Assembly (NCBI GenBank): GCA_016235055.1
Contig: JACRMK010000046.1
Coordinates: 34,958-98,957, forward strand
Origin: Chloroflexota bacterium
Lineage (GTDB): Bacteria > Chloroflexota > Anaerolineae > JACRMK01
DNA length: 64,000 nucleotides
Direction of reading: 5' to 3'
Part shown: one piece after another, positions 22,027 to 64,000 of the stretch
Numbering within the stretch: the first letter of the stretch is position 1
Layout: every line of letters begins with the position of its first letter
Made by a program: the position numbers and the translations under genes
The notes under the pieces: model-generated
What the model was told of the DNA's origin: nothing
Seen by the model: the letters and a program-made list of their open reading frames with translations, nothing else
The model's database searches: none

Positions 22027-23052
22027 ATGACTGACAAGCTGACCATTATGATCGCCTCGCAACTGGAGCCGGAGCACATCGAGCGCATCCGCGCCGTCGA
22101 TCCGCGCATCGAGGTGCTATACGACCTCGCGCTCGTGCCCCAGATGCGCTACATCGCCGACCACACCGGCGGCCCGTTCCAGCGCACGCCGGAACAGCAG
22201 GCGCAGTGGCTCGACTGGCTTAAGCGCGCCGAGGTGCTGTTCGACTTCGAGCGCGCCGCACTGAAAGATCTGCCGGTCACCGGCCCGCGCGTCAAGTGGA
22301 TCCAGTGGACGAGCGCCGGCATCGGCCAGGTGATCAAGGGCGCGGGCATCGACCGGCTGCCGATCGCGCACACGACCGCCAGCGGCGTGCATGCGCGGCC
22401 GCTGGCCGACTTCTGCCTGATGGTCATGCTGATGACGGTCAAGAACTTCCTCTGGATGCAGCGCGACAAGCGTGCGCACCACTGGGAGCGCTACTGCGGC
22501 GAGGAACTGACCGGCAAGACGCTGGCGATCGTCGGCATGGGGCGCGTCGGCAGCGAGGTGGCGCGCACCGGCAAGCTGATGGGCATGTGTGTGATTGGCA
22601 TGCGCCGTGGCACCGAGCCGGCGCCGTACGTCGACCGGATGGTCACGCGCGCGGAACTGCCCGACATGCTGCGCGTGGCCGACTTCGTGGTGCTGATCGC
22701 GCCGCACACGCCCGAGACGGAGAACCTGATCGGTGGTACGGAACTGGCGCAGATGAAGCCGACCGCCGTGCTGATCAACATCGCGCGCGGCCAGTTGGTG
22801 GACGACGCCGCACTGGTGCGCGCCCTGCAGAGCGGCCAGATCGCCGGCGCGGCGATCGACGTGGCGCGCGTCGAGCCGCTCGACCCGGCGTCGCCGCTGT
22901 GGGCGATGCCGAATGTCGTCATCAGCCCGCACTCGGCCAGCACCGTGACGGCCGAGAACGATCGGATCATGGACATCTTCTGCGAGAACATCGGCCACTA
23001 CCTGCGCGGCGAGCCGATGCGCAACCGCTGGAACCCCGATCTGCTATATTGA
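22027..23052 (+). CDS. D-isomer-specific 2-hydroxyacid dehydrogenase, NAD-binding
   Basis: GxGxxG-type motif IVGMGRVG, conserved catalytic R/E/H region (NIARG..., ISPH). Confidence 0.85.
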   Translation: MTDKLTIMIASQLEPEHIERIRAVDPRIEVLYDLALVPQMRYIADHTGGPFQRTPEQQAQWLDWLKRAEVLFDFERAALKDLPVTGPRVKWIQWTSAGIGQVIKGAGIDRLPIAHTTASGVHARPLADFCLMVMLMTVKNFLWMQRDKRAHHWERYCGEELTGKTLAIVGMGRVGSEVARTGKLMGMCVIGMRRGTEPAPYVDRMVTRAELPDMLRVADFVVLIAPHTPETENLIGGTELAQMKPTAVLINIARGQLVDDAALVRALQSGQIAGAAIDVARVEPLDPASPLWAMPNVVISPHSASTVTAENDRIMDIFCENIGHYLRGEPMRNRWNPDLLY

Positions 23053-23057
23053 TTGGC

Positions 23058-23092
23058 AACCCTTCGGGTCTTCAAGACCCGAAGGGTTTTTT
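23058..23092 (+). terminator. Rho-independent terminator (CCCTTCGGGTC family) after dehydrogenase gene
   Basis: Palindrome AACCCTTCGGGTC-ttcaa-GACCCGAAGGGTT followed by TTTTTT. Confidence 0.65.
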
Positions 23093-23121
23093 GGATTCGC
23101 GAAACGACCGGAGGCGCGGAT

Positions 23122-24765
23122 ATGATCATCAAACGCCTGCTATACCTCGCCTGCACGCTCGTCGCGCTGTTTGCCGCGTACCGCATCCTTGTCGTGGACG
23201 GCGGCATCGTACGTACCTCGACCGTCGTAGATGGCATCCCGGTCGAGATATTCGCGCCGGCACCTGAGCCGAACGCGCGGCTGCCGCGAGTGTACCCTGC
23301 TGTCGTTATCGCACATGGCTATGCGGGAAGCAAGCAGGTCATGTACGAACTGGCGCGCACCCCGATCTATTTGTCACCGGATCAAGGTTTGTTTGTAGCG
23401 GGATTGCTCTCTGGTCCTGGACAGGCAATCGCTGTCACGTTCGACTTCACCGGGCATGGCGCTAATACAACTCCGCTTTCAGCGACCGCACGACTAGATC
23501 AACTGCAGAAGGATATAGGCCGCATTGTGCAGTACGCGCGCTCGCTGCCCAATGTGGATCCAAATAGCATCGCTTTGATTGGTCACTCGATGGGGGCCGG
23601 CGCAGTCGTGCAATACGCCAATCAACACCCGGATATCAAGGGGGTCATATCCATTTCGGGAGGCGCTACCGAGGTGACGCCCAACGCGCCGAAGAATCTG
23701 CTATTGCTGGCCGGTGTTCTCGAATTCGATTCAATCAAGACAGCCCAGAAGATCGCTCTGGCAAACGCGGGGGGCTCGTCCGAAGCATTTTGGTCAGGAC
23801 GGGCGCGAGCATTGGAGTTTGTACCGTCTTCAGAGCACCTTACGGTTTTGTGGAATGACATGACGCTAGTCAGCGCGGCGAGTTGGTTACGGTATTGCTT
23901 TCTCGGAGGGATTCCAGATCGCCTGAGAATAATCGATCGTTGGGGACCATCATTTTGGCAAACGTTGCCACAATCACTGCTTACCGTGCGGGCTATTCAG
24001 GCAGCGCTCTTGCTATCGCTCGCCGTCTTCGTCCTCTTCTTCCCCCTCTCATCATTCGCCGTGTCGCGGCTCGGCCTGCGCGTGGCCGCGCCCGTGCCCG
24101 CCGGTCTGCCGTACGGGCAGGTGCTGCTCGTCGCGCTCGTGCCGGCCGTGCTCGCGCCGCTGATCCTGCGTGGGCTGTCGCTGACGCCGATTGACCCGGC
24201 GACGTGGCTGCCGATCCAGATCGTCAACTACATGGCGATGCATTTCCTGCTGTACGCCGCGCTAATGCTGGGAGTGCTGCGACTGTTCGGCGTGCGCGAC
24301 CTGTGGGCACGCATCCGGCGCAATCTGCGGCCGGCTGCGCTCGTGCTGGCGGCGCTGTTCTTCGCGTGGATCTACGTCACGAACGGGGTGGTGGCGCACC
24401 TGACGTGGCTGAACTTCCTGCCGTCGGGCAGCCGGCTGTGGCTCTGGCCGGTGGTCTGCGCGTTGGCGATGCCGTACTTCGTGCTGAACGAGTATGTGAC
24501 GAAAGCGGCGACGATGCGGCGGAGCGCGCTGAACGAGTTGACCTCGAAGGTCGCGCTGATCGGCTCGCTGCTGTTCGCGGTGGCGATCACGCCGGGGTTG
24601 TTCTTCCTGCTGCTGGTGATCGCCGTCTTTGCGGTCTTCTTCGCCGTGTATGGCGCGTACGCGGTGCGCCTGCATAGCCTGACCGGCAACCCGCTGATCG
24701 CCGCGCTCGGCTACGCGGCTATGACCGCCGCGTTGCTCGTCGCCGTGTTCCCCATCACCGGATAG
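23122..24765 (+). CDS. Alpha/beta-hydrolase fold protein fused to C-terminal polytopic membrane domain
   Basis: GGAGG 7 nt upstream of internal ATG; N-terminal signal anchor; GHSMGAG nucleophile elbow (GxSxG); about 250-aa C-terminal region of 6-8 predicted TM helices. Confidence 0.75.
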   Translation: MIIKRLLYLACTLVALFAAYRILVVDGGIVRTSTVVDGIPVEIFAPAPEPNARLPRVYPAVVIAHGYAGSKQVMYELARTPIYLSPDQGLFVAGLLSGPGQAIAVTFDFTGHGANTTPLSATARLDQLQKDIGRIVQYARSLPNVDPNSIALIGHSMGAGAVVQYANQHPDIKGVISISGGATEVTPNAPKNLLLLAGVLEFDSIKTAQKIALANAGGSSEAFWSGRARALEFVPSSEHLTVLWNDMTLVSAASWLRYCFLGGIPDRLRIIDRWGPSFWQTLPQSLLTVRAIQAALLLSLAVFVLFFPLSSFAVSRLGLRVAAPVPAGLPYGQVLLVALVPAVLAPLILRGLSLTPIDPATWLPIQIVNYMAMHFLLYAALMLGVLRLFGVRDLWARIRRNLRPAALVLAALFFAWIYVTNGVVAHLTWLNFLPSGSRLWLWPVVCALAMPYFVLNEYVTKAATMRRSALNELTSKVALIGSLLFAVAITPGLFFLLLVIAVFAVFFAVYGAYAVRLHSLTGNPLIAALGYAAMTAALLVAVFPITG

Positions 24766-58347: not shown

Positions 58348-58686
58348 ATGAACATAACGGCGCAAGGAAGCCGCACGGCGTCAACACGTGGACGGTCCGA
58401 TCTGAACCGATTCAGACGAATCCTGAAGCGGCACATGCCTGATTTGGAGAACCGCTACAACGTCCGGTCGCTAGGCATCTTCGGATCGTATGTTAGGGGC
58501 GAACAGCGGAAGCGTAGTGATCTGGACGTGCTGGTCGAATTCGCCAAATCGCCCGACCTGTTCGAGTTCACGGCATTGGCCGACGACCTCGAGCACCTGT
58601 TGGGCGTTAAGGTGGATTTGGTCAGCCGGAACGGCCTGCAAGGCCGCTTGGCAGAGCGCATCTTAAGCGAGGTTGTGCCGGTATGA
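58348..58686 (+). CDS. Nucleotidyltransferase MntA-like antitoxin
   Basis: LGIFGSYVRGE...SDLDVLV motif; AAGGAG upstream. Confidence 0.8.
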   Translation: MNITAQGSRTASTRGRSDLNRFRRILKRHMPDLENRYNVRSLGIFGSYVRGEQRKRSDLDVLVEFAKSPDLFEFTALADDLEHLLGVKVDLVSRNGLQGRLAERILSEVVPV

Positions 58687-59069
58687 GTGCCGCGCGCCGC
58701 CATCTCGACTACCTGCGGGACATCGCCGACATGATGGGCACCGTTGTCGAGTTGACCGATGCGATGACGTTTGAGCAGTTTGCGACTGACAAACGCACGG
58801 CTTTGGCCGTCAGAAAGGCAATCGAGATCATCGGCGAAGCCGCCAAGCATCTGCCACCGTCCTTCCGCGATCGGCACGATGCAATCCCCTGGAAACAAAT
58901 GGCTGGCATGCGCGATCGGTTAATCCACGCTTACTGGGGCATCAACATTGACATTTTGTGGGCAACGGCAACCGAAGTGATTCCCAGCCTGCGCCCGCGC
59001 ATCGCACTAGTCCTGGAACAGGAGCTGGCACGCGAACAGCGCGCGCGGCCGGCGCCAGATGATACGTGA
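58683..59069 (+). CDS. HepT-like (DUF86) HEPN toxin
   Basis: R-x4-H-x-Y HEPN motif (RDRLIHAY); ATGA overlap with mntA-like gene. Confidence 0.8.
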   Translation: MSAARRHLDYLRDIADMMGTVVELTDAMTFEQFATDKRTALAVRKAIEIIGEAAKHLPPSFRDRHDAIPWKQMAGMRDRLIHAYWGINIDILWATATEVIPSLRPRIALVLEQELAREQRARPAPDDT

Positions 59070-59186: not shown

Positions 59187-60785
59187 ATGACCACGTTGTA
59201 TGCCGAGAAGCAGGCTGCGTTCGATTGGATCGAAGCCAACCGAGCGCGCCTTTCCGGCTTCTGCGAGCAGATCTGGAACTATGCGGAGACGGCGTTCCGC
59301 GAGTACAAGTCCGCGCGCGCGTATTGCGATCTGCTGCGCGCCGAAGGGTTCACCGTCGAGGAAGGCTCCGCCGAGATGCCGACGGCGTTCGTCGCGACGT
59401 ACGGCAACGGCGGGCCGGTGCTGGCGACGTTCTCCGAATACGACGCCGTGCCGGAGAACTCGCAGGAGCGCGTGCCGTACCCGTCGCCGCGCGCCGGCCT
59501 GAACCGCTGGGCGGCCGGGCACACCGACCCGCACTCGTCGCTCGGCACGAGCGCGCTGATCGGTGCGCTGGCCGCCAAGGCGATGATGGTCAAATACGGG
59601 CTGCACGGCACGCTCAAGCTGTTCGGCGAGCCGGCGGAGAAGGTCTGCGGTTCCAAGCCGGTACACGCCGCCAAGGGGTATTACGACGGGCTCGACGCGG
59701 CGGTCGTCTATCACCCCAATGCCAGCAACTCCGTAGTGTGGGAAACACACAGCGGCTCGTACTGGAGCGCGGCGTTCGTCTTTGAGTGCATCGATCCGGA
59801 GGAGTGGATCGACCAGCGCCTGCTGCCGAACACGAGCACCTCGCACGCGGCGGCGCGCTGTCCGGCGGCGATCGACGCGCTGTGCCTGATGTATACGCTG
59901 ACCAAGTACAGCAAGGAGGCGATGTTCCCGCACACCGGCACCTGGACGCTCAACGAGAACATCATGGTTGGCGGGCAGTGCACCTCGGACAACCTGCCGC
60001 CGCGCCTGGCGGTCATCCAGTACTCGTGGCGCTCGCCGACGCTCGACATCCAGGAGCGCGTATTCCAGGTGCTGGCGCAGAACGCGCGGCAGGTCGCCGG
60101 CGCGACCGGCTGCGTCGCCTCGGTGCGCTGGATCACGAAGACGCGCGTCGGCCTGCCGAACCTGGCGATCTCCGACCTGGCCTACCGCAACCTGGAACTG
60201 GTCGGCGCGCCCCAGTTTGGAGACGAGGCGCGCACCTTCGCCCGCGCGATCCAGAAGAATCTCGGCTTCGAGCCGATGGACGACCCGTTCATTGCCGACA
60301 ACCAGACGCTGACGCCGCCGCCCGAACTGGAAGCGCGCGTGCGCCAGGGCCTGCCGCCGTGGCAGCTCAACTTCACGTCGGATGATTATGTGGAATACAC
60401 CTGGCACGCGCCGACCGTGCGGCTCTACACGGCGCGGCCGCGCCTGAAGGCGCCCAAGCCCGGTTACACGTACCCGGCATGGGTGAACAACGCGATGGGC
60501 GGCGTGCCGGCCTGCATCGATCCCGGCATGTTCGTCGCGGGCAAGACGATCGCCGCGACGATGCTCGATCTGCTCAAGTCCCCGGACGAGCTCGCCAAAG
60601 CGCAAGCCGAGTTCCGCGAGCGGACGGGTGGCGGCGTGGGCGGCAGCCAGTGGGTCGCGCCGCTGTTGGCGCGCGATTTCCCGCCGCCGGTCGAATTACG
60701 CTGGCCGGAGTACGTGCAGACGCCGCGCGGCGAGGAGTGGTGGGTGCCGACGGTGACGCACGAATCGGCCTACGTGAAGCTGTAG
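59187..60785 (+). CDS. M20-family amidohydrolase (aminobenzoyl-glutamate-utilization AbgB-like)
   Basis: 532 aa from internal ATG with AAGGAGG upstream; metal-ligand regions (GHTDPHS, EPAEK) typical of M20 peptidases. Confidence 0.8.
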   Translation: MTTLYAEKQAAFDWIEANRARLSGFCEQIWNYAETAFREYKSARAYCDLLRAEGFTVEEGSAEMPTAFVATYGNGGPVLATFSEYDAVPENSQERVPYPSPRAGLNRWAAGHTDPHSSLGTSALIGALAAKAMMVKYGLHGTLKLFGEPAEKVCGSKPVHAAKGYYDGLDAAVVYHPNASNSVVWETHSGSYWSAAFVFECIDPEEWIDQRLLPNTSTSHAAARCPAAIDALCLMYTLTKYSKEAMFPHTGTWTLNENIMVGGQCTSDNLPPRLAVIQYSWRSPTLDIQERVFQVLAQNARQVAGATGCVASVRWITKTRVGLPNLAISDLAYRNLELVGAPQFGDEARTFARAIQKNLGFEPMDDPFIADNQTLTPPPELEARVRQGLPPWQLNFTSDDYVEYTWHAPTVRLYTARPRLKAPKPGYTYPAWVNNAMGGVPACIDPGMFVAGKTIAATMLDLLKSPDELAKAQAEFRERTGGGVGGSQWVAPLLARDFPPPVELRWPEYVQTPRGEEWWVPTVTHESAYVKL

Positions 60786-60835
60786 CCAAACGCGACGCAC
60801 AAACGGAAGCGGGACAGGCATGATGCCTGTCCCGC
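60705..60835 (+). repeat. Direct repeat, left copy (3' end of M20 gene plus terminator)
   Basis: 131 bp; identical to 62092-62222 except 2 substitutions. Confidence 0.85.
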
Positions 60836-60841
60836 TTTTTT
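60811..60841 (+). terminator. Rho-independent terminator of M20 gene
   Basis: GGGACAGGC-atga-GCCTGTCCC followed by GCTTTTTTG. Confidence 0.7.
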
Positions 60842-60945
60842 GTTGTGCGTGCTATCCCTCAGCGCGCCCGGCTGGACGAAACTGGCTTGAATCCCCGTTT
60901 GCGGCAATCCGCACGAGGAATGTCAAACAGCATCAGTACGGAGAA

Positions 60946-61080
60946 AATGGGGGTACGACGGCGTGTGCCCATTGCCAACGCAGTGGGCAACAAGTCAAGG
61001 ACGGAATCAATGCGTTTGGCAGCCTGCAGTATCGATGCAAAGGCTGTTGCCCTTCTGAACTTTTTCACTTAACACGGTAG
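60946..61080 (+). pseudogene. Possible IS1595-family transposase N-terminal zinc-ribbon remnant
   Basis: ...NGGTTACAHCQRSGQQVKDGINAFGSLQYRCKGCCPSELFHLTR then stop; pattern NG..C.HC...(13)...YRCK.C...F resembles the Zn_Tnp_IS1595 ribbon; no DDE domain follows. Confidence 0.3.
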
Positions 61081-61086
61081 CAATTG

Positions 61087-61743
61087 TCATCTTCCAAGCA
61101 ATTCTGCATTCGACTGGAATAGAGGAATCTGTGTACTTTCAGTATCATCGCAGTCCGGTGAGAACTTGTATTTCACGTTGAAACTCATTTCTGAATAGCT
61201 GTAGGCTTGATACCCTTTAAAATGGGAATTGGAAAGCTGGGTAAAGCGATTCTCAATAGGTTTCCATACGGCGGTGCTCCAATATGAAACCGGATATCGT
61301 ATGCACGACCTCTCGTGAGCCCCACCATCTTGAACATCCAAATCGACAAAAACCAAGAATCGATCTGAACCGAACTTCACATACTCGACCAAGTAGTAGC
61401 CCTTGCCATGATACCAAACGTCTCGCCTGACCCCGACGTTTATCGAACCAAGCGCTTGTGCCTTGGTGATAAACGCCGCGACCCCTGAGGCATCTTGCAC
61501 GGCCGCAGTCGCCCAGAAGGTATTTTCGCGTTGAGCTTTACGCTGTGACTCAATTGTGCTGACAGCTCGATCATCAAGTGTACCATATGAAATCGCATTC
61601 GACGCGCCTTGGTAAACTGCGACGACGGCAGAGAATCCGACGAGGATGATCAGGAGGCCGATTAATCCCCTCAGCAAATTGCCAAAACATCCCGACTCGA
61701 TCAAAATACCCAAGCCAACAGCTCGAAAGAAGTTATCGCTCAT
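61087..61743 (-). CDS. Hypothetical membrane-anchored protein (cargo gene B)
   Basis: 218-aa ORF in AT-richer DNA where stop-free frames of this length are unlikely by chance; two N-terminal hydrophobic helices; ATGA overlap with upstream ORF. Confidence 0.55.
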   Translation of the reverse strand: MSDNFFRAVGLGILIESGCFGNLLRGLIGLLIILVGFSAVVAVYQGASNAISYGTLDDRAVSTIESQRKAQRENTFWATAAVQDASGVAAFITKAQALGSINVGVRRDVWYHGKGYYLVEYVKFGSDRFLVFVDLDVQDGGAHERSCIRYPVSYWSTAVWKPIENRFTQLSNSHFKGYQAYSYSEMSFNVKYKFSPDCDDTESTQIPLFQSNAELLGR

Positions 61744-62054
61744 ATTCCGCCTGCGTCTTTCTCTTCGGTGACAACTGGAGGAAAACAGCGCTTTGCACTA
61801 GAAAGCATGTCTCGCCGTGTGTACCGCATGTATCCAATCTTCAAGTATATGCACTTTGCATTGTGGCGACCATCATGATAGCGGTGTGAGTTTCCAGGCT
61901 TGGGCAATGGCGAACGAAGATGGAAATAGCATCGAACTTCGCTCGCGTATTTTCTTCTGAACTCAGCCCACGGTTGGTTTGTCCCATAAACACAGTCATT
62001 ATACAACTTTGTGCTGCGTTTCTGGTTTATCGGCAATGGGTGTAGCAACGACAT
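61740..62054 (-). CDS. Hypothetical Cys/His-rich small protein (cargo gene A)
   Basis: 104 aa; 4 Cys and 6 His could form a metal site; no obvious RBS. Confidence 0.45.
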   Translation of the reverse strand: MSLLHPLPINQKRSTKLYNDCVYGTNQPWAEFRRKYASEVRCYFHLRSPLPKPGNSHRYHDGRHNAKCIYLKIGYMRYTRRDMLSSAKRCFPPVVTEEKDAGGI

Positions 62055-62091
62055 ACACTTGATTCCATCGATACCGTGCGGTTTGCTCTGG

Positions 62092-62222
62092 CCGGAATAC
62101 GTGCAGACGCCGCGCGGCGAGGAGTGGTGGGTGCCGACGGTGACGCACGAATCGGCCTACGTGAAGCTGTAGCCAAACGCGACGCACAAACGGAAGCGGG
62201 ACAGGCATCATGCCTGTCCCGC
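62092..62222 (+). repeat. Direct repeat, right copy (duplicate of M20 3' end plus terminator hairpin)
   Basis: Same 131 bp as 60705-60835 with G-to-A at position 6 and loop ATGA-to-ATCA; followed by TTCATTTTC. Confidence 0.85.
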
Positions 62223-62459
62223 TTCATTTTCACTCGGGCGCGGTATTCTGTTCGGACCCTATCTGGCTGCGTCGGGATCGCGTAGGGGCGCACCGACGTG
62301 TGCGCCCGCCTGGCACGCTGCGGGCCGACACGCAGGTCGGCCCCTACCACCGGCGCTTTGCGGGTGGCTTTGCCCAATTCGCACGCATGTTCTAAGTTTG
62401 TGCTATAATAGCGACGGGCACAGAACATTAGTTCTCACTACCGCTATAGGAGAATCGCG

Positions 62460-62654
62460 ATGATCACCGGACCGCAATCCCAACTGCTCTTCATCGGCGT
62501 GTTTGCCGTGCTGTTCGCCTTTTGCCTCGCGTTCGCGTGGCTGTTTGCCACCGTGGCCGCCAGGATCGGCATGCCCAATGACGACGAGCTCGACGAACTA
62601 GCGGAGGCCGTGCTGAATGGCACGCCGGTCCGCGCGCCGCGCGTCGCCGAGTGA
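62460..62654 (+). CDS. Small membrane protein, hypothetical
   Basis: 64 aa; AGGAGAA 7 nt upstream of ATG; TATAAT-like box about 50 nt upstream; one TM helix plus acidic C-terminus. Confidence 0.55.
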   Translation: MITGPQSQLLFIGVFAVLFAFCLAFAWLFATVAARIGMPNDDELDELAEAVLNGTPVRAPRVAE

Positions 62655-62678
62655 CCAGCTCGTGCGGTTGTAACAAAA

Positions 62679-62710
62679 GACCCGAAGGGTTTGCAAACCC
62701 TTCGGGTCTA
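62679..62710. terminator. Bidirectional terminator hairpin (CCCTTCGGGTC family) between convergent genes
   Basis: AGACCCGAAGGGTT-tgca-AACCCTTCGGGTCT. Confidence 0.6.
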
Positions 62711-62733
62711 TTTCGCTGCGCCCGCGACGGCGC

Positions 62734-64000
62734 TTACGCCGGTCGCCAGCAGAGGTCCGGCTTGCGCGCTGCCGTCGCCTCGTCCAGCCGCGAGACCGGC
62801 GTGGTGTGCGGCGCAGAGCGCACGAGCTCGGGGTTCTCCTCGGCCTCGCGCGCGATCTGCAGCATCACCTCGCAGAAGCGGTCGATCGTCTCCTTGCTCT
62901 CCGTCTCGGTCGGCTCGACCATCAGCGCTTCCTCGACGACCAGCGGGAAGTAGACCGTCGGCGGGTGAATGCCGAAGTCGATCAGCCGCTTGGCGATGTC
63001 GAGCGTGCGCACGTTGTTCTTCGCCTGGCGCTTGCCGGAAAAGACGACCTCGTGGTAGCAGGTGCGGTCGAACGGCAGGTCGTACGCGCCCTTGAGGCGC
63101 TCCTTGATGTAGTTCGCGTTCAGCACGGCGATCTGGCTCACCTCGCGCAGGCCGTCCTCGCCGTGTGAGCGGATGTACGCGTAGCCGCGCACCAGGTTGG
63201 CGAAGTTGCCGTGGAACGCGCGCACCCGGCCGATCGACAGCGGCCGGTCGTTGTCGAGCGTGTAGCGGCCATCCTTGAATGCGACGACCGGCGCCGGCAG
63301 GAACGGCGCCAGCGCCTTGGAAACGCTTGTGCCGCACGCGCCCGGCCCGCCGCCGCCGTGCGGCACGCCGAACGTCTTGTGCAGGTTGTAGTGCAGGATG
63401 TCGAAGCCGACCTCGCCCGGCTTGCAGATGCCGAGCAGGGCGTTCATGTTCGCGCCGTCGCCGTACACCAGGCCGCCCGCCGCGTGCACCAGTCGATTGA
63501 TCTGCTCGATGTGCTGGTCGAAAAGGCCAACCGTCGACGGATTGGTGATCATCATGCCCGCGACCGTGTCGTCGAGCAGCGCCTTCAGCGCGTCCACGTC
63601 CACGTTGCCGTGGGCGTCCGCCTTGACGGTGACGACGCTGTAGCCGACCATCGCGGCGGTCGCCGGGTTGGTGCCGTGCGAGCTATCCGGCACGATAATT
63701 TTGGTGCGCTTCGTGTCGCCGCGCGACTTGTGATAGCCGTGGATCATCAGCACGCCGGTCAGTTCGCCGTGCGCGCCTGCCGCCGGCTGCAGCGTCGCGC
63801 CCGCGTGCCCTGCGATCTCGGCGAGCTGCTCCTGCAGTTCGTACATCATGCGCAGCGCGCCCTGCACGGTGCTCTCAGCCTGGTACGGGTGAATGCGCGC
63901 AAAGCCCGCCTGCCCGGCGATGACGTCGTTGATCTTCGGGTTGTACTTCATCGTGCACGAGCCGAGCGGATAGAACACGGTATCCACGCTGAAGTTCTTG
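62734..64000 (-). CDS. gcvPB: Glycine dehydrogenase (decarboxylating) subunit 2, GcvPB; 5' end lies beyond window
   Basis: PLP-enzyme motifs incl. [13 protein letters not shown] and LHKTF (Lys for PLP); reading frame stays open to the window edge. Confidence 0.9.

Follow-up and report, generated by a model that had tools for sequence, protein, structure and literature searches.

A transposase-like zinc-ribbon fragment in a 1.25-kb island between 137-nt gene-end repeats of a Chloroflexi genome

Insertion sequences of the IS1595 family generate an 8-bp target duplication, have inverted repeats at their termini and encode one transposase, which contains a DDE domain (PMC8101967, citing Siguier et al. 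2009). The IS1595-like ISNpe28-type element of haloarchaea is a 944-bp IS with 25-nt inverted repeats. Its ORF1 (~170 aa, PF12760 Zn_ribbon_IS1595) has a conserved 28-aa leader, a zinc ribbon and a downstream FNDLT...HTH segment, and a DDE ORF follows. Some members of the IS1595 family are said to carry passenger genes. The InsA protein of IS1 also contains a zinc ribbon (PF03811; NF033558), with the architecture CxxC-x18-Y-x-C-xx-C and a V-(R/K)-x-G linker. Mobile insertion cassettes and transporter IS (tIS, mentioned in PMC7986276) consist of cargo bounded by inverted repeats, with or without a transposase. CIMEs (cis-mobilizable elements) are decayed, att-flanked elements of 1.2-13 kb that lack recombination genes and lie at the 3' ends of protein-coding genes; the sites in the streptococcal literature are gene 3' ends such as fda, rpsI, and rpmG (PMC7563491). 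Descriptions of CIMEs come from Firmicutes. Phage 21 and e14 have their integration site in icd of E. coli (PMC12803456). Both are prophages, 15-40 kb in length, and each encodes an integrase of its own. The integration site of these prophages is in the 3' part of the gene, and the gene stays intact. The 3' end of icd is duplicated in the process: a substitute gene end is brought by the element, and the displaced fragment is found at the far junction. ICEs and IMEs integrate in this Campbell-type manner at fda, rpsI and rpmG.

The locus described here lies in a 64-kb stretch of DNA from a Chloroflexi bacterium (64,000 nt, hereafter the window). Direct translation of positions 60946-61080 on the + strand gives NGGTTACAHCQRSGQQVKDGINAFGSLQYRCKGCCPSELFHLTR followed by a stop codon, and the same frame read from 60820 runs up to this stop as ...GENGGTTACAHCQRSGQQVKDGINAFGSLQYRCKGCCPSELFHLTR. 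An earlier note on this DNA had pointed out a four-cysteine zinc-ribbon pattern on the + strand followed directly by a stop, and both are present, with the core reading CAHC-x18-YRCKGC. The spacing given in the note was right in its pattern and wrong in its counts, since NG is separated from the first Cys by four residues and not two, and HC from YRC by 18 and not ~13. In the six-frame translation of the window, C.HC-x(10-20)-YRC..C has a single match, which is this stretch. A degenerate DNA pattern of the ribbon (C..C-x7-K.G-x8-YRCK.C) also matched once in the window and in none of 100 shuffles, and viral contigs contained no match to it. The bare pattern C..C-x(10-22)-C..C was found at ~4 independent loci of the six-frame translation, including the zinc-ribbon stretch. 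Its presence at ~three other loci favors the explanation that the four cysteines are a coincidence, arising either in non-coding island DNA or on the strand opposite to a genuine 69-aa ORF (60859-61068, - strand). Taking together the evidence given below, we consider such a coincidence somewhat unlikely.

The stop-free stretch that contains the zinc ribbon spans 60778-61077. The only candidate start in it is ATG-ATG at 60820, with no other ATG, GTG or TTG, and this pair is located in the loop of the terminator hairpin of the upstream peptidase gene. Thus the zinc-ribbon stretch has no usable start codon and is not an expressible gene, and the missing start codon is a further point in favor of coincidence. 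Another ATG at 60920 is out of frame with the ribbon; judging from the sequence, it could join the ribbon frame if one base were restored in the A4/G5 run at 60944-60953. The ribbon begins 108 nt inward from the left edge of the island (60838). Its GC3 is 0.51, compared with 0.90 in the host peptidase gene, and the stretch is foreign in composition, like the remaining island. The 69-aa antisense ORF spans the zinc-ribbon stretch and starts 19 nt past the stop codon of a 218-aa ORF. A partial form of it was called by the gene caller on Logan contig L002, and this preference for the antisense frame would fit the chance explanation. Against that explanation, the antisense ORF has no family match and no Shine-Dalgarno sequence or other obvious ribosome-binding site. 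An exact-protein look-up of the 69-aa product returned no record.

Curated models did not recognize the stretch. No Pfam family, including PF12760 and PF03811, matched either the 86-aa ORF or a trimmed 44-aa peptide at E<=10. The earlier note had named the Pfam Zn_Tnp_IS1595 model as a check of its proposal that the ribbon is of the IS1595 type, and by this criterion the proposal found no support. The sole NCBIfam match was to the IS1 transposase NF033558 (E=0.17, 11.8 bits against a cut-off of 100). We used as controls peptides that were shuffled with the four Cys held fixed. Ten of these gave NCBIfam E-values of 0.077-0.4 and never matched a transposase; the IS1 match is thus at noise level, as the chance explanation would have it. 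The best PHROG match was PHROG 1191 'transposase' (E=0.013), about one order of magnitude better than the shuffle noise, as ten shuffles reached E=0.11 at best and again never matched a transposase. When the zinc-ribbon peptide was searched by tblastn against plasmids (7.3 Gb), five matches were obtained, the best with E=0.03 and 37 bits. At least three of the five correspond to the N-terminal part of ISNpe28-type transposases from haloarchaea; two of these are annotated as IS1595-like and one is unannotated. Four shuffles in the same search matched only unrelated loci, with best E-values of 1-10. A transposase zinc ribbon comes first in three independent resources (NCBIfam, plasmid tblastn, and PHROG), and none of 14 Cys-fixed shuffle searches matched a transposase or reached comparable scores, both of which speak against chance.

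Larger protein collections gave no relative. A word-indexed search of a 56-aa peptide against 5.8e9 proteins yielded zero candidates, and exhaustive phmmer over 1.84e9 representative proteins found no real homologue, only two repetitive junk proteins whose scores were summed over 5-6 repeats. Tblastn of the zinc-ribbon peptide against phages gave zero matches. The absence of a homologue in the exhaustive search, together with that of a significant curated HMM match, is in line with coincidence.

The ISNpe28-like family comprises 62 proteins of ~170 aa with PF12760, in one of which PF03811 is present as well. A local HMM of 44 ISNpe28-like zinc ribbons scored the segment at 21.2 bits (E=1.5e-5 over the 1250 stop-free six-frame segments of the window), an E-value that is inflated because the best-matching family was selected post hoc. 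The second-best segment of the window scored 6.6 bits. None of 2000 Cys-fixed shuffles reached 21.2 bits (mean 0.6, SD 3.0, maximum 18.8), which again argues against chance, and with a local profile of the ISNpe28 family the segment scored 21-23 bits. As positive controls, bona fide ISNpe28-type ORF1 proteins were compared with PF12760 and reached 25.8-27.3 bits against its cut-off of 25.4. Since genuine members exceed the cut-off by only 0.4-2 bits, PF12760 is a weak test for this subtype.

The stretch has the same CxxC-x18-Y(R/W)CK(G/E)C spacing as ISNpe28-type ORF1. The two also have in common G-T before the first Cys, a (V/I)K-x-G linker and QYRCKGC, and they are 45% identical over 33 residues. 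This agreement at non-Cys positions speaks against chance. The short length of the matching stretch (~33 residues, 4 of them Cys) counts against the interpretation as a transposase fragment. Neither the island nor any other part of the window contains the conserved leader, FNDLT segment, HTH or DDE domain of the ISNpe28 family. That the flanks of the stretch resemble neither this HTH nor the leader is also in favor of coincidence. The claim of the earlier note that no DDE domain follows the ribbon was borne out: tblastn with an ISNpe28 transposase over the whole window and an HMM of the full-length ORF1 family, run on all six-frame segments, both matched the zinc ribbon alone. In addition, no island ORF has a Pfam or NCBIfam match to the DDE_Tnp_IS1595 (ISXO2-like) domain, and in place of the single intact transposase gene of an IS1595-family element there is a stretch without a start that ends at 61080. 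Neither the 944-bp element nor its 25-nt inverted repeats were found at the locus, and the hosts differ, haloarchaea on one side and a Chloroflexi bacterium on the other. A similarity between the ISNpe28 inverted repeats and a 12-nt repeat of the island was rejected on comparison. A zinc ribbon of TnpB/IscB or of a serine recombinase was considered and rejected, as Pfam was negative and the typical downstream motifs are missing.

The IS1 InsA ribbon has the same architecture and linker as the stretch. PF03811 gave no match and NF033558 remained far below its cut-off, so that the two marks of the IS1 family are missing here, and in BLASTP the E. coli IS1 InsA aligned in a collinear register without significance (E=0.74). 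As far as sequence goes, 33 residues cannot separate IS1 from IS1595, and the best matches are IS1595-like. Of the IS1595-type identity proposed in the earlier note, the affinity survives, with ISNpe28-type ORF1 proteins that carry PF12760 as best matches, while a significant match to an IS1595-family HMM is absent. The weak best matches are all transposase zinc ribbons, the stretch itself is not confirmed by curated models, and its homology to such ribbons is borderline on these statistics. We think that 60946-61080 is probably the 5' fragment of a dead transposase of the IS1/IS1595 type. It would once have encoded the N-terminal zinc-ribbon DNA-binding domain common to the IS1 and IS1595 families, and in spacing and sequence it would be nearest to the haloarchaeal ISNpe28-type IS1595-like ORF1. 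The start codon, HTH and DDE catalytic domain would have been lost, and the fragment would thus have no present function.

The fragment is part of an island of 1250 bp (60838-62087) downstream of a peptidase gene, and the features of the locus are collected in Table 1. The GC content is 48-54% in the island and 65-70% in the flanking genes, and GC3 is ~0.50 in the island ORFs and 0.90 in the flanking host gene. Between the left edge and the zinc-ribbon stretch (60838-60945) GC is 0.556. Homology between the left spacer and the right flank (62225-62460) was considered and rejected, since 65 of 1000 shuffles were as good. In Pfam, NCBIfam, PHROGs and PADLOC searches, no recombinase, integrase, excisionase, relaxase, conjugation gene, DDE domain or other known domain was found in the island. 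The 218-aa ORF and the 104-aa ORF have no family in Pfam, NCBIfam, PHROG or PADLOC. Among 5.8e9 proteins, the only match of the 218-aa ORF was itself, a hypothetical protein of a Chloroflexi MAG (locus tag HZB53_11045), and its AlphaFold model has a pLDDT of 41 and is confident only in the N-terminal helix at residues ~20-40, with values below 50 elsewhere. The 104-aa ORF (AlphaFold pLDDT 44) was uncalled on Logan contigs L001-L003, and its coding status is doubtful. Island DNA had no match in plasmids in a distant-mode search, the 218-aa ORF matched nothing in viral contigs and plasmids except a chance UvrA alignment, and Rfam gave nothing near thresholds. A chimeric 53-aa ORF (62011-62172, + strand) begins in island DNA and continues, in the same frame, into the right repeat copy with the last 27 codons of the peptidase gene; it probably arose as a side effect of the insertion.

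Table 1. Features of the peptidase-island locus (positions in the window)
Feature	Position	Strand	Remarks
M20-like peptidase/amidohydrolase gene	59187..60785	+	ATG 59187 after AAGGAGG; intact to C-terminus; target gene of the island
Left 137-nt direct repeat	60701..60837	+	Last 27 codons of the peptidase gene, stop codon and terminator hairpin; completes the intact gene
Left spacer	60838..60903	.	T-tract of the left terminator copy; no recognizable feature
Possible left inverted repeat GCAATCCGCACG	60904..60915	+	4 nt upstream of the out-of-frame ATG 60920
Putative zinc-ribbon remnant	60946..61080, core 60964-61047	+	Ends with TAG 61078-61080; no in-frame start, HTH or DDE
218-aa orphan ORF	61087..61743	-	N-terminal hydrophobic helix; island cargo
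104-aa ORF	61740..62054	-	Overlaps the start of the 218-aa ORF by ATGA
Possible right inverted repeat GCAAACCGCACG	62075..62086	-	1 nt from the right direct-repeat copy
Right 137-nt direct repeat	62088..62224	+	Displaced/duplicated peptidase 3' end and terminator

The product of the peptidase gene matches Pfam Peptidase_M20 with E=5.9e-4, below the curated cut-off. Its closest relative, found in a contig scan, is a protein from an Anaerolineae MAG with 78% amino acid identity, and the alignment extends through residue 548. The C-terminus aligns with that of this homologue, in comparison with which the peptidase gene is full length. The two direct repeats that enclose the island are identical at 135 of 137 positions, with a synonymous mismatch at 60710 (G/A, GAG/GAA) and a second one in the hairpin loop at 60822 (G/C). 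Upstream of the 137-nt repeat, homology past 15 nt was rejected. Each copy has a terminator-like hairpin, at 60805-60839 on the left and at 62193-62225 on the right. In the left copy (60805-60843) the T6 tract comes from island DNA and makes the better intrinsic-terminator tail, and in the right copy (62193-62235) CATTTTC is found downstream. Hence it is the island that supplies the terminator tail of the host gene. Logan contig L001 covers 60808-62127 with 100% identity. Both island junctions recur in three independent SRA assemblies (100% identity), and each junction has its own copy-specific variant; the island structure is therefore not an assembly artefact.

This structure suggests Campbell-type integration at a gene 3' end, followed by a CIME-like decay. 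A circular DNA with a copy of the peptidase gene end would have recombined, by a site-specific or a homologous route, through the 137 nt of shared sequence. Such an integration would restore the peptidase gene and its terminator and leave the displaced copy at the far side. Subsequently, the island might have decayed, or it might always have been non-autonomous, and it would now consist of two orphan ORFs and a scar, as in a CIME. The transposase fragment would be a passenger scar and not the vehicle that inserted the island. The arrangement resembles that of phage 21 and e14 in the insertion in the 3' part of a gene, the intact gene and the displaced end fragment at the far junction. Unlike these prophages, the island is 1.25 kb long and has no recombinase.

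Judged by its sequence features, the island has the structure of a CIME, with the 137-nt repeats as putative att sites. At 1.25 kb it falls at the lower end of the 1.2-13 kb range, its site is the 3' end of a protein-coding gene, the target gene is intact, direct repeats flank it, and it carries cargo ORFs. As in CIMEs, integrase, excisionase, relaxase and conjugation genes are absent, and so is a transposase gene. The 137-nt repeats are much longer than typical att cores, which counts against this explanation, and no cognate ICE/IME, integrase, tandem partner or related element was found; the host is a member of the Chloroflexi instead of the Firmicutes. We also looked for the state before integration. 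In a putative empty site, CATTTTCACTCGGG would directly follow the peptidase 3' end and its terminator. The searched collections contained no empty site or circular junction, and no cognate integrase or related element. Exact-protein look-ups with the peptidase (with two start codons) and with the 64-aa ORF downstream of the island returned no record and no empty-site contig. A metagenome scan with a 53-nt repeat/terminator sequence gave 0 matches. The locus of the 78%-identical peptidase is not syntenic downstream, and it is thus unusable as an empty site.

The earlier note had seen the island as a decayed IS with passenger genes and had suggested terminal inverted repeats at 60836 and 62091. 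These were looked for and are absent, and the proposal is mostly contradicted by the locus, in which the edges have no inverted repeats, the IS1595-type 8-bp target duplication is missing and the flanks are the 137-nt direct repeats. The sole feature that favors an IS-derived cassette is a 12-nt inverted repeat further inside (60904-60915/62075-62086; p ~0.002-0.025, post hoc). The arms are complementary at 11 of 12 positions, and they are the only two copies in the window. If these were terminal inverted repeats, the island core 60904-62086 might be a cassette of the tIS or mobile insertion cassette type. The left repeat would then lie directly upstream of the start of the remnant transposase, with ATG 60920 joinable to the ribbon frame by one base; the remaining transposase would have been deleted and the two passenger ORFs kept, and a separate recombination would have produced the 137-nt repeats. 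We regard this as unlikely.

The likeness to mobile insertion cassettes and tIS consists of a possible 12-nt repeat pair around a transposase remnant and cargo ORFs. The positions of the arms are in its favor, with the right one 1 nt from the right edge of the island and the left one 48 nt before the first Cys codon, and an equal or better repeat occurred in just 3 of 2000 mononucleotide shuffles. The zinc-ribbon evidence is the same for this explanation as for the one we prefer. However, the repeat is only 12 nt long and was chosen post hoc, and 125 of 5000 random placements in the real window (2.5%) were equal or better, which leaves its significance borderline. The right arm may equally well be the direct repeat continuing in degenerate form (9 of 15 positions identical to 60687-60701), and the left arm has another 66 nt of island DNA on its outer side. 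Neither 60904/62086 nor 60838/62087 is flanked by a target duplication, of 8 bp or of any other short length, and transposition leaves the 137-nt direct repeats unexplained. An intact related IS might carry GCAAWCCGCACG at its ends. A second copy of the cassette was absent from the window and from every searched collection, and this single occurrence is another difference from mobile insertion cassettes and tIS.

The preferred explanation is a combined one, in which a dead zinc-ribbon fragment lies inside a Campbell-integrated, CIME-like island; it is the best that we can offer, and we put it forward tentatively. A further idea, which we consider very improbable, is that the island is a minimal cassette without a recombinase that could be mobilized in trans. 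This would occur either through the 137-nt repeats, acting as a long att, or through the 12-nt repeats and a transposase of the IS1/IS1595 type, and the stub would be a vestige of an autonomous ancestor. If true, two orphan genes, one of them for a membrane-anchored 218-aa protein, would have been delivered to the 3' end of a Chloroflexi peptidase gene.

The neighbors of the island include an APH-like kinase, an MntA/HepT toxin-antitoxin pair and gcvPB. The pair consists of an MntA-type nucleotidyltransferase and a HepT-like RNase (58348-59069, + strand; Pfam E 6.7e-13 and 1.6e-26) and immediately precedes the peptidase gene. With a GC of 0.59, compared with 0.65-0.70 around it, it looks like a separate small accessory insert. 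On the other side of the island, a near-perfect 19+19-nt palindrome without a spacer (62675-62712) is located between the 64-aa ORF and the convergent gcvPB, and it is likely to be a bidirectional terminator. The GcvPB-like ORF (62734-63987, - strand) begins at a GTG just past an upstream stop codon, and its match to Pfam GDC-P does not start until profile position 92. The N-terminal part of the protein may be lacking or may be encoded in a different frame. ARAGORN reported a 92-nt tRNA-Ala(ggc) at 63283-63374 (- strand) within this coding region, which is probably a false positive. Elsewhere in the window, the second-lowest GC of any kilobase (0.569) was found at 23001-24000.

The fragment appears to be a very divergent and fragmentary new example of a well-known genomic scar, and it has little importance beyond annotation. 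It would mean that an insertion sequence of the IS1/IS1595 type was once carried by the island or moved together with it, and that its lineage is without close relatives among 1.84 billion representative proteins. More useful as a by-product is the corrected view of the island, a 1.25-kb foreign cassette inside a 137-nt duplication of a gene end and its terminator. This duplication is suggestive of an integrative element that has decayed, and less so of a transposon. The island thus shows how scars can mislead when they are read from the sequence alone.
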